32,000 nucleotides of DNA from Candidatus Harpocratesius repetitus (GCA_021498095.1 JAIZWK010000001.1:810001-842000), one strand, 5' to 3'; numbered from the stretch's first letter, positions 708-4,229 are shown. The notes: generated by a model not told the origin, from the sequence alone. Translations and numbers: made by a program.

Positions 708-1028
708 TTATTTTTTTCCTATCATTTTATTAAGTTCAACTATTTTTTGGTCAATAATAGATGAGAATTCTCGATTATTTGAATCTTCCACAAATCTAAA
801 TGCTTGTAAGTATTCTTCTAAAGCTTTTTGATGAAATCCTAAATGTTCTAGTAAATTTGCTTTTTCTGCCATAGATTTTGCAATTCCAAATCGATTGGAC
901 AGCTGAAGCTTTAATTTAATAATTTGATTGTAAATTTCTAAAGCTAAAGGGTAATTTTCATTTTTTTTAGCGATTTCTAAATTTTGAGCAAGTTTGTACA
1001 ACTCAATGATATCTTTCATTTCTTTCAT
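708..1028 (-). CDS. Short TPR-like helical repeat protein
   Basis: TPR-like patterns (NYPLALEIYNQII; GIAKSMAEKANLLEHLGFHQKALEEYLQA). Confidence 0.7.
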   Translation of the reverse strand: MKEMKDIIELYKLAQNLEIAKKNENYPLALEIYNQIIKLKLQLSNRFGIAKSMAEKANLLEHLGFHQKALEEYLQAFRFVEDSNNREFSSIIDQKIVELNKMIGKK

Positions 1029-1149: not shown

Positions 1150-1905
1150 ATGAATCAACTTGCAGAAATATCTCCTAGTGCCAATAAATATCGCATTGTA
1201 TGCAAAGTAGCTAATCCAATTAACAAGTTGATATGCTTTTATTCATTTGACAAAGGAAATTCTTGGGTATCTCAAGTCATGATCCCCACTAATGAGTTTG
1301 AATATTTAATGTATATTTCTGATATTCCCTCCTTCTCTTCTATTTATCTCTTTTTTCAAATTGAAACTTTGGATTCAAATATCATTATTGATAGTAATAA
1401 TGGTATTTTTTATCAACTTTTATCCCAAGATGATGATTTCACTCCTTCAATTCAAACAGATTCAAATAACATTTCTGAATTTCAAGATTTAAACGATGAT
1501 TATGGATCAATAGAAGACAATAAGCCAGATCTTGAAAACTTACATGAAAGTCTTCCTTCTTACAATGCACCTTCTCCTATTTCTTCTTCATTTTTGTCAT
1601 CTCCGTCCATAGTTCAATCCGAATTTCCTGAAAATTTACAACCTTCCAAAGAATCTTCTTCTTCCAGTTTAGCTATTCGTTCTTACAACCCTTTTAATTC
1701 TTCTTCATTAAGTAAACCTCTTCCCTCCCAAAAAATCATCAAATTTAGGCAATCTCACATTAGCGATATTTCTATTACTTCCAAATCGAAGTCAAAATCA
1801 CGTGATATGAAAAGTAAGATTGAATTTTTCACTTGTCAAAAGTGCAACGGACGATTTCCTGAACCCCTTTCTATTTGTCCATACTGCGGATCCCAGAATA
1901 ATTAA
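1150..1905 (+). CDS. Protein with a beta-sandwich (Ig/CBM-like) N-domain, Ser/Pro-rich linker and C-terminal C4 zinc ribbon
   Basis: ATG at 1150 preferred over TTG at 1054. Beta-rich N-domain ends in IIDSNNGIFY, reminiscent of the WDNNxGxNY motif of starch-binding CBM folds (weak). Low-complexity linker, then CQKC-x10-CPYC. Confidence 0.7.
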   Translation: MNQLAEISPSANKYRIVCKVANPINKLICFYSFDKGNSWVSQVMIPTNEFEYLMYISDIPSFSSIYLFFQIETLDSNIIIDSNNGIFYQLLSQDDDFTPSIQTDSNNISEFQDLNDDYGSIEDNKPDLENLHESLPSYNAPSPISSSFLSSPSIVQSEFPENLQPSKESSSSSLAIRSYNPFNSSSLSKPLPSQKIIKFRQSHISDISITSKSKSKSRDMKSKIEFFTCQKCNGRFPEPLSICPYCGSQNN

Positions 1906-2056: not shown

Positions 2057-3838
2057 ATGGGCGTGAATCTCTTGACTGATCAATATGATTTTCTCTTTAA
2101 ATGTGTAGTACTTGGTGATGGTGGCTGTGGAAAGACTGCCATTGTTGTTCGTTTCTCTCAAGGCTTCTTTAAAGAGAACTATAAGATGACCATAGGTGTC
2201 GAGTTCGCAGTCAAGAGTATAGAAGTAAAAAACGCTCAAAATTATACATATAATGTTAAATTGCAGATTTGGGATACAGGAGGACAAGATCGTTTTCAAT
2301 ATGTTCGACCACTTTATTATAAAGGGGCAATGGGGTGTATTATCCTTTTTGATATAACAAATCGAGAAAGCTTTGATCATATTCCCCGGTGGATTGAAGA
2401 AATTCGCAAAGAAGCGGGTGAAATTCCTACATTACTTGTTGGTAATAAAAGTGATTTGCAAGATCAACGTGTTGTGTCTCGGAAAGAAGCTGAAAAATTG
2501 GCTAAAAAACTAGGATTTTTATATGCAGAATCTAGTGCAAAAAATGGCGTGGGAGTGGGAGATATTTTTAAGATCTTGGCTTTAATGATGATAGGTGAAG
2601 AAGTCCCTAAAGAATTGATTGAAGATAACTTAGCACAACAGTTGCAAACCTCAAAAACACCTTTTTCAGAAAGTAAGACACAACCATCACCATTCGGTAT
2701 AACTTCAAAACCATTCAATATTGGAGAAACTGAGCATTCTGAAGCTGATCAAAGAATGGTAAGTAAACCGAAACCCGCACAATTATATAATAAAAATAGC
2801 AGTGGAGTCTCACCTAAATCGGGTTTTGAACCTATCAAAGTAAAACCCTCACTGAATTTTTCTTCAAACTCATTGAAAGTAAATCCTTTTAAATCATCAG
2901 ATCAAAACACTTCATCAACAAAGAAGCTTGATGATATAGTGAATGATAGTTCACTTGAAGCTGTTGAAAATCAAGGTATTTTTACTACAGGAACACGGAA
3001 AACATTTCCAAAACCACAACCAATGCCGTCTCAAACTATTGATTCAGAACTATTTATCCCCAAACCACCACCAAATCCACATATTCCAAAAGTTCAGAAA
3101 TCTTATAAATTGGAGGAGAAATCTGAACAACATGATGTTTACCAAGTTCCATCTGCAAATCAGGGAAATAAAACCCCTTTCTTAGAAAGCAGCAAGGAAA
3201 TGAAATCAACGAGTGGTTTTGATAACCCTTTTCTCGCAAAAAAAGAATCAGAATCAAATAAATCTATTATAGATTCCCAAGATCAAAACCCTTTTATTTC
3301 ATCATCAGTCAAAAAGGATGAAAATAAATTAAATTCTAAATTTAAAGATGAACAGAAAAAAGTTCCCTTCATATTTCCTACAAAATCAATTCCTTCATCA
3401 TCGCAAACAAAACCTATAACAAAATCCACATCAGAGAGATCTACTTTAGATTCACCAAGAAAATCAGCTAATTTACAACAATCTACACCATTTTCTTCAA
3501 AAATATCTTCTTCTCGAACATCTTCAACTTCTTCATTAGCACCTTTTATTCCCGGGCAAAACTCAAATGAGAAAAAATCTATAGAAAATAAACGTGAATT
3601 AATTGAAAAGAATTTAGAGTTGAAAATTCCTGCAAAAACGTTTACTGGGACGATCAATCCTTTTTTAACACCGAAATCTACAATGATACCACCTGTACCA
3701 AAAAAACCCTCACCAAATCCCTTTATTAAACAAAAAGAATCAATCAATCCAAAACAAATCGTATGTCCTAATTGTGGAAATGTATTGCCAAGAAAATTTA
3801 AGTATTGTAATAAATGTGGTGCTTTAATGAAATATTAG
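2057..3838 (+). CDS. Rab-like small GTPase with a ~390 aa low-complexity tail and C-terminal C4 zinc ribbon
   Basis: G1 GDGGCGKT, G3 WDTGGQ, G4 NKSD, G5 SAK. RabF-like motifs IGVEF, KLQIW, RFQYV, YYKGA, LFDIT. Ends CPNC-x10-CNKC with no prenylation motif. ATG at 2057 chosen. Confidence 0.93.
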   Translation: MGVNLLTDQYDFLFKCVVLGDGGCGKTAIVVRFSQGFFKENYKMTIGVEFAVKSIEVKNAQNYTYNVKLQIWDTGGQDRFQYVRPLYYKGAMGCIILFDITNRESFDHIPRWIEEIRKEAGEIPTLLVGNKSDLQDQRVVSRKEAEKLAKKLGFLYAESSAKNGVGVGDIFKILALMMIGEEVPKELIEDNLAQQLQTSKTPFSESKTQPSPFGITSKPFNIGETEHSEADQRMVSKPKPAQLYNKNSSGVSPKSGFEPIKVKPSLNFSSNSLKVNPFKSSDQNTSSTKKLDDIVNDSSLEAVENQGIFTTGTRKTFPKPQPMPSQTIDSELFIPKPPPNPHIPKVQKSYKLEEKSEQHDVYQVPSANQGNKTPFLESSKEMKSTSGFDNPFLAKKESESNKSIIDSQDQNPFISSSVKKDENKLNSKFKDEQKKVPFIFPTKSIPSSSQTKPITKSTSERSTLDSPRKSANLQQSTPFSSKISSSRTSSTSSLAPFIPGQNSNEKKSIENKRELIEKNLELKIPAKTFTGTINPFLTPKSTMIPPVPKKPSPNPFIKQKESINPKQIVCPNCGNVLPRKFKYCNKCGALMKY

Positions 3839-3872: not shown

Positions 3873-4229
3873 ATGCCTAAAGATAACAATACTTTACAAC
3901 ATTTACAACAACAAGTTGATCTTTTAATAAAAGATTTTGGTGGATATTGGCCTCCATTATCTATGTTAGCTTGTGTTATCGAAGAAGTTGGTGAAATAAG
4001 TCGTGAATTAAACGCTCTTGAAGGATTTAAGCCAAAAAAGCAAGATATTACTATTTCAATTCATGATAAGTTAGCTGAAGAATTAAGTGATACATTATTC
4101 AGTTTAATTTGTATTGCGAATTATTATCAAATCAATTTATCAAGATCCTTTCAACAAATTCTTAAAAAATATCAAGAAAGAGATCAAAAGCGTTTTTCTT
4201 CTGATTTCAAATCTTCTCCTTCATCTTGA
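3873..4229 (+). CDS. MazG-like nucleotide pyrophosphohydrolase (YpjD-like)
   Basis: EEVGE...EELSD acidic metal-binding motifs; N-terminal GGYWPPLSMLA typical of this family. Confidence 0.85.
   Translation: MPKDNNTLQHLQQQVDLLIKDFGGYWPPLSMLACVIEEVGEISRELNALEGFKPKKQDITISIHDKLAEELSDTLFSLICIANYYQINLSRSFQQILKKYQERDQKRFSSDFKSSPSS

Follow-up and report, generated by a model that had tools for sequence, protein, structure and literature searches.

The docking of multivalent short motifs in disordered protein regions is usually deemed a hallmark of eukaryotic trafficking and signalling. In eukaryotes, NPF adaptors such as epsin, Dab2, synaptojanin, rabenosyn-5 and Rab11-FIP2 are read by the EH domains of Eps15 and EHD proteins, and TPR domains are another type of reader for short linear motifs, as in kinesin light chain (W-acidic motifs), Hop and Tah1 (EEVD), and LGN. 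A receptor for NPF that is not an EH domain has been described with POLE2, which reads NPY as well (PMC12808100). For the Asgard archaea, it was reported that all small GTPases of MK-D1 are without a prenylatable C-terminal cysteine (Tran et al. 2024, PMC10933270), and the same study described primordial Rabs as being without a C-terminal extension and grouped other architectures as “various domains of unknown function”. Here we describe a gene of Candidatus Harpocratesius repetitus that is located at 2057..3838 (+) in a stretch of 32,000 nucleotides (GCA_021498095.1, JAIZWK010000001.1:810001-842000), which is called the window in the following. It encodes a Rab-like GTPase with a long tail and a C-terminal zinc ribbon, and we think, with a probability of roughly 0.6, that this tail is a multivalent docking scaffold of NPF[L/I] and other xPF motifs (x being any residue) on a Rab-like switch GTPase.

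The open reading frame (ORF) encodes 593 residues from the ATG at 2057, and an alternative TTG start at 2072 would result in 588 residues with the N-terminus MTDQYDF, which agrees with the orthologues and with a database entry of 588 residues. Residues 15-175 (2099..2581, +) form the Rab-like G domain (Pfam Ras PF00071, E = 4e-54), in which the G motifs are complete and which contains GDGGCGKT (G1), IGVEF, KLQIWDTGGQ, YYKGA, ILFDIT, NKSD and SAK. The RabF1-F5 consensus of Pereira-Leal and Seabra reads IGVDF, KLQIW, RFRSIT, YYRGA and LVYDIT, to which IGVEF, KLQIW, YYKGA and ILFDIT correspond in the window protein, with RabF3 being partial only (RFQYVR). The closest solved structures are all Rabs, namely Rab43, Rab8A, Rab1 and the Thorarchaeota Rab 7EZB (E about 1e-43 to 1e-42). 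Judged by G1-G5 and the family profile, the protein can be placed in the Ras superfamily as a Rab-like small GTPase. The Ser/Lys/Pro-rich tail of about 385 residues follows (residues 181-566; 2597..3754, +); it is probably disordered, as judged from composition and divergence, and it also holds the Pro-rich motifs FIPKPPPNP and IPPVPKKP. The tail leads to a putative C4 zinc ribbon of the form CxxC-x12-CxxC (residues 570-587; 3764..3817, +), which is indicated by its motif and by homologues; the Pfam profile Zn_Ribbon_1 (PF13240) scores 24.1 bits, slightly below the cut-off of 25 bits. Its four cysteines are kept in 113 of the 121 full-length homologues scanned. The protein terminates shortly after the ribbon with CGALMKY, which is not one of the CC, CXC or CAAX ends that follow the short hypervariable tail of eukaryotic Rabs, and the predicted zinc ribbon thereby appears to occupy the place of the prenylated cysteines. 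A Rab-like G domain, a long S/P/K-rich tail and a zinc ribbon in place of the prenylation site had all been proposed in an earlier sequence-only reading of the gene, and this architecture is borne out by profiles and homologues. With respect to the G domain, the Rab motifs and the absence of a prenylatable C-terminal cysteine, the protein resembles other Asgard Rab-like GTPases, such as the Thorarchaeota Rab 7EZB and the MK-D1 set, and it differs from them by the tail of about 385 residues and the zinc ribbon, an architecture that is not described in PMC10933270.

The tail contains 12 xPF sites, which start at nucleotides 2657, 2687, 2708, 2882, 3173, 3224, 3287, 3362, 3485, 3539, 3656 and 3716. 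Five of these are NPF motifs. The first one at residue 276 (2882..2890, +) is NPF or SPF in most orthologues of the genus, the second one (NPFL, residue 390, 3224..3232, +) and the third one (NPFI, residue 411, 3287..3295, +) are retained in five and four, respectively, of the seven other genus-clade orthologues, the fourth one at residue 534 (3656..3664, +) is invariant in all eight genus-clade sequences and lies in a conserved island RE.IE.NL...KTF....NPFLTP, and the fifth one at residue 554 (3716..3724, +) is common to the closest strain only. A recount reproduced the earlier tally of five NPF and seven further xPF at the same places, with proline preceding 12 of the 21 phenylalanines of the tail and making up 11.1% of its residues (binomial p = 4e-7 for residues 181-566). 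Asparagine precedes PF at 5 of the 12 sites and represents 6.7% of the tail (p = 7e-4). The 12 PF stand against 2.4 expected, and none of 200,000 tail shuffles gave 12 PF or 5 NPF. Over a crude set of 3,810 ORFs representing the proteome, the observed/expected ratio of PF is 1.02 and NPF is barely over expectation (185 versus 164); tailed Ras-family GTPases, among them the window protein, take the first two places in PF enrichment. Of the phenylalanines in 138 other disorder-like segments, no more than 9% follow a proline, a share to which mostly three proteins contribute, compared with 55% in the segment of the window protein. The xPF excess results neither from composition nor from repeat amplification, because the proteome has no PF excess, the tail DNA has no tandem repeats, and orthologues keep the motifs at a tail identity of about 30%. 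A tandem-repeat origin of the motifs was considered and ruled out, as Tandem Repeats Finder detected no array in this part of the gene.

Other members of the genus, of the family and of the order have the same succession of a G domain, a tail of 200-500 residues and a zinc ribbon. About 120 database homologues share it, all of which are named merely “GTP-binding protein”; some of them carry the labels Hermod-, Hod-, Sigyn-, Hel- and Thorarchaeota, and the named ones from Promethearchaeota include orthologues in Lokiarchaeum ossiferum and Promethearchaeum syntrophicum. An inspection of orthologue tails for retained xPF and a comparison with unrelated low-complexity proteins had been suggested as checks in the earlier reading, and both favor selected motifs: besides the contrast of 9% versus 55% mentioned above, the seven closest homologues (G-domain identity of at least 85%) have 8-12 xPF versus 2.2-3.0 expected, including 4-7 NPF, and the motif at residue 534 is invariant in the genus clade. 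In the next tier (68-75% G-domain identity) mostly 1-5 NPF are found and a few sequences have zero, and at identities under about 67% there is practically no NPF left, with PF, chiefly as IPF, VPF or GPF, near expectation. Within the genus clade, tails are identical to that of the window protein at a fraction of 0.33, compared with 0.75 for a proline before phenylalanine and 0.56 for a phenylalanine after proline; proline and phenylalanine are the most conserved residue types of the tail. Six xPF sites are fixed in position in the genus clade and the other sites turn over. When the window protein is counted together with the six database homologues closest to it, asparagine precedes PF at 37 of 70 sites (53%) and L/I/V/M follows it at 41 of 70 (59%), which indicates that the motif is NPF[L/I], and more than a bare aromatic residue. 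These observations favor selection on the xPF/NPF sites as short linear motifs of the probably disordered tail. The net charge of the tail varies from +22 to -42 across homologues and is not conserved, and a polybasic membrane-binding role of the tail was dropped for this reason.

The NPF motif has a pronounced clade pattern. In a G-domain tree, the NPF-bearing tails cluster (9 changes versus about 30 in shuffles) and represent 27 of the 29 scored rows in the part of the tree that holds the genus clade together with the related genera that we label g5 and g6; one SNPF[LFM] alignment column is common to four genera. The Rab tails of lineage g3 are without NPF, and the Rab ORF of g4 is short, without zinc ribbon, and uninformative for this comparison. 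The tail of the sister family holds other conserved islands, namely a repeated [DE][YF].APPVPEP, EFKTPEEIL, YKPK..PFS, PF[RM]V, SL.DYMP, PSLFQTL, LRIIPN.AD and a Lys/Glu-rich block. Its Pro-rich motif corresponds to FIPKPPPNP and IPPVPKKP in the window protein. In view of these other islands, NPF is a clade-specific layer on an older motif-studded scaffold. Two relatives have repeated NPF units in their tails. P0030 from a g6-like lineage (L056:5001-6371) has PEPNPFITPE four times in tandem at a place where its sister species show PEPKPYIPP units, which is a recent amplification of an NPF-bearing repeat. P0083 from a metagenome contig (L058:4086-5939) has a canonical multi-repeat TPR fused before the same Rab-like G domain, followed by a tail with four NPFMPK-type units about 20 residues apart and a zinc ribbon at the end.

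The motif is found in two further protein families of the same clade. P0002 is encoded directly upstream in the same orientation (1150..1905, +) and consists of an Ig/CBM-like beta-sandwich with Asp-box (1183-1422, +), a disordered linker with a conserved NPF (1687-1695, +) and a C-terminal zinc ribbon (1834-1887, +). The linker has a predicted local distance difference test score (pLDDT) below 50 in the structure prediction. The fold search with the beta domain gave generic CBM/Ig-like matches only (E >= 3e-3), and Asp-box repeat proteins dominate the matches of the profile search. All P0002 orthologues in the NPF-bearing genera possess one NPF each in the same alignment column, and conserved acidic residues follow the NPF core. 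Counted over cluster representatives that are less than 50% identical to each other, the motif [RK]PI..[YF]NP[FY]..[DE].G[DE]I is present in 23 of 23 P0002-type representatives without an N-terminal zinc ribbon, three of which have NPY, and in none of ten representatives of a sister type, in which a further zinc ribbon is found at the N-terminus and, in most cases, TIFG.PQ. The other family is a longin-pseudoGTPase that is encoded elsewhere (genome 2508474-2510738, +) and consists of a longin-like domain, a G domain that is Arf-like but degenerate (Pfam Arf, E = 7e-4) and a tail of about 420 residues carrying three NPF[F/L]. Its orthologues have NPFF (NPFM in one) in the genera g1, g5, g6 and g7, and no xPF in g3 and g4.

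Other ORFs of the genome, which is closed and comprises 4.36 Mb with 31% G+C (about 31-37% in the window) and 53 Ras-family matches, as is typical for a Loki-type Asgard archaeon, also contain such motifs. A protein of 403 residues (genome 3290679-3291890, -) has a helical N-terminal region, a long disordered linker with VNPFFLSP and a C-terminal zinc ribbon, and thus shares with the Rab and P0002 the plan of domain, disordered NPF linker and zinc ribbon; it adjoins another zinc-ribbon protein and a calcineurin-like phosphoesterase. The neighbours of this protein and of the longin-pseudoGTPase have no family in common with the window locus. A second Rab-like GTPase (genome 4242431-4244131, -) has a tail of 28 near-perfect tandem EPKPFAPPTT decapeptides; it is the most PF-enriched ORF of the genome and is without a zinc ribbon. 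Another ORF (genome 643719-644561, -) has a zinc ribbon at its N-terminus and the unit [ST/A]PFPPP eight times, and its C-terminal region is FHA-like by eye. Finally, five ORFs (genome 229322-232672, 1818121-1821729, 3426662-3428590, 3432528-3434519 and 3435305-3438136) end with a Thr/Asp-rich linker, NPF.N(I), IPGY and a hydrophobic C-terminal helix, and at least two of them possess an N-terminal signal-like hydrophobic stretch. Their ends look like a PGF-CTERM-like sorting signal of secreted proteins with the NPF a few residues upstream, and these ORFs were therefore set aside as members of a cytosolic NPF network. Such sorting-signal NPFs contribute to the excess of NPF that the disorder-like segments of the proteome show.

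Motif enrichment, retention and turnover among orthologues, the occurrence in three protein families of one clade and a conserved gene module are the observations on which the docking-scaffold reading is based. The protein would be a Rab-like switch GTPase with a probably disordered docking tail, whose array of five NPF[L/I], seven further xPF and Pro-rich F.P..PPKP sites most likely recruits several copies of one motif-binding protein, and the C4 zinc ribbon at the end of the tail would substitute for the prenyl anchor of eukaryotic Rabs. Recognition in a pocket is suggested by the fixed Asn-Pro before the phenylalanine, the aliphatic residue after it and the single-copy conserved motif in P0002. 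As the same NPF is present in the Rab tail, in P0002 and in the longin-pseudoGTPase, these three could be gathered by, or compete for, one reader, resulting in a GTPase-centered assembly.

The gene neighbourhood offers a candidate for this reader. A TPR protein of 106 residues, TPR106, is encoded divergently at 711..1028 (-), and a MazG-type nucleotide pyrophosphohydrolase of 118 residues is encoded directly downstream of the GTPase in the same orientation (3873..4229, +; profile and synteny) and may be functionally linked to it. The order TPR106(-)/P0002(+)/Rab(+)/MazG(+) is kept in g1, g5, g6 and g7 and in independent metagenome contigs, and three NPF-less relatives have other neighbours without the module genes. 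Among 41 related genomes, clear TPR106 orthologues (E <= 1e-16) are found only in g1, g5, g6 and g7. The TPR106 model is a five-helix TPR (pLDDT 93.6) that resembles the peptide-binding TPRs of LGN, KLC, Hop and alpha-SNAP with template modelling (TM) scores of 0.8-0.88 (0.7-0.88 over the motif-reading TPRs of kinesin light chain, Hop/Tah1 and LGN), and in this model the protein is a TPR domain, with helix-turn-helix repeats forming a groove. It comprises about 2.5 repeats, and its sequence matches generic TPR families below their cut-offs (TPR_12, 20.2 bits). TPR106 has invariant Lys and Asn residues, and in P0002 the motif is followed by acidic residues. Because of the module synteny, the restriction of the orthologues to NPF-bearing genera and the peptide-binding type of the TPR fold, TPR106 is a reasonable candidate reader and our best guess, if a tentative one with the odds clearly against it. 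A complex prediction of TPR106 with Rab residues 505-552 and P0002 residues 166-199 gave a score of 0.00, which weighs neither way. The P0083 fusion was considered as a Rosetta-stone link to TPR106 and ruled out, since hhalign gave a probability of 2.7% for homology of its N-terminal TPR. In its most specific form, the docking reading would have the NP[FY] motifs on the Rab, P0002 and the longin-pseudoGTPase read by TPR106, as a eukaryote-style motif network that evolved in this clade and forms a multivalent, GTPase-switched assembly at a surface reached via the zinc ribbons; we regard this complete picture as speculative and, taken as a whole, doubtful.

Several observations weigh against the docking scaffold or against parts of it. 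Five of the 12 sites are common to the closest strain only, single NPFs occur sporadically in other lineages at about the chance rate, and a g4-like lineage has two NPF, with TPR106 not being found in the one g4 genome searched (85% complete). The NPF-bearing genera are probably one clade, so that few evolutionary events may account for the shared occurrence of TPR106 and of NPF in three proteins, and any clade-specific gene would be distributed in this way. The aromatic gaps in the tail are more even than in shuffles (coefficient of variation 0.57 versus 0.92 +/- 0.16, p = 0.003), which fits aromatic stickers equally well. Moreover, none of the known reader domains was detected. The EH profile (Pfam PF12763) has no match in this genome at E <= 1 and none in 301 Asgard genomes at E <= 0.01, in sequence searches that were made without a positive control; the EF-hand pair (EF-hand_7, PF13499) reached nothing significant in this genome (best E = 0.2), and neither did the profiles for SHD1 and the alpha-adaptin C2 domain of the ear or appendage. 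DNA_pol_E_B (PF04042), the POLE2-type B subunit, has no match in this genome at E <= 0.01 and matches control archaea; this would mean that the PolD subunit DP1 is absent from the genome or too divergent for profile search. The sequence-only reading had seen in the array a ligand of EH domains and in the whole a possible pre-eukaryotic network, and a true EH-type network would indeed have the motifs bind an EH-like EF-hand pair akin to that of Eps15/EHD, as the ancestor of the endocytic NPF-EH system. The NPF[L/I] form, the disordered context, the multivalency and the link to a Rab all match eukaryotic EH ligands, and NPF is found in several trafficking-type proteins. We nevertheless consider such a network very improbable, not only because of the negative EH and EF-hand searches, but also because NPF is restricted to a single sub-clade of the Loki-type order, with sister families using other motifs, from which it follows that the motif was not inherited from a deep Asgard ancestor. 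A full-text literature search listed, among its matches, no Asgard paper linking NPF or an EH domain. The reader of the motif is thus apparently not an EH domain, and the likeness to eukaryotic EH ligands is most simply convergent, given that no known reader domain was detected and the motif is limited to one sub-clade. The eukaryotic NPF-EH adaptors are alike in having multiple NPF, a disordered region, often a hydrophobic residue after the motif, and a tie to Rab-type GTPases (see also PMC12370899 and PMC2238750). They differ in that here the motifs are on the GTPase itself and not on an effector, and that no EH domain is detected; the clade-restricted distribution also speaks for convergence. 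An unrelated, non-EH reader is plausible, because recognition of NPF and NPY is not limited to the EH fold, as is seen with POLE2 (PMC12808100). Some P0002 orthologues have NPY for NPF, just as POLE2 ligands may have, but the genome has no DNA_pol_E_B match and the cellular context is unrelated.

What survives of the sequence-only reading is accordingly the array of selected short linear motifs in a disordered tail, without its EH reader and its pre-eukaryotic origin. The alternative it had offered, that evenly spaced xPF act as aromatic stickers which drive homotypic or heterotypic condensation of the GTPase without a dedicated folded reader, fits the spacing and also the conservation of proline and phenylalanine above other tail residues, with positions turning over and the motif number being kept, as well as the existence of a paralogue with 28 tandem EPKPFAPPTT units. 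Stickers need no fixed neighbours, however, and the N-P-F-[LI] specificity, with asparagine before and an aliphatic residue after PF at more than half of the sites, is poorly explained by them. In the P0002 type, the NPF is a single copy inside a conserved motif of 15 residues in all 23 representatives, and one copy cannot form a sticker array; the net charge of the tail is not conserved either. We therefore think that condensation by stickers is rather unlikely to be the explanation. It could also be that the tail has no specific function, being a spacer between G domain and zinc ribbon in which the PF excess arose as a by-product of slippage or of composition drift. The fast divergence of the tail, with about 30% identity within the genus clade, the strain-specific nature of 5 of the 12 sites and the repeat amplification in the tails of relatives would agree with that. 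On the other hand, the gene contains no tandem repeat, a PF excess is absent from the proteome and from most other disordered segments, seven orthologues hold 8-12 motifs where 2-3 are expected, the motif at residue 534 is invariant, and within the clade the motif is also found in two protein families that are not related to the GTPase. Together these points make a functionless spacer improbable. The multivalent docking scaffold therefore remains the explanation that we prefer.

On this reading, the locus presents sequence signs of a motif-docking system in a prokaryote close to eukaryotes, on the very type of Rab-like switch that organizes eukaryotic membranes. The clade-restricted distribution is at the same time a warning against reading NPF as an inheritance from the ancestor of eukaryotes. 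As Lokiarchaeum ossiferum and Promethearchaeum syntrophicum, which are both cultured, possess the module, the reader and the cellular site are open to experiment, and the zinc ribbon hints at how the non-prenylatable small GTPases of Asgard archaea may be tethered.

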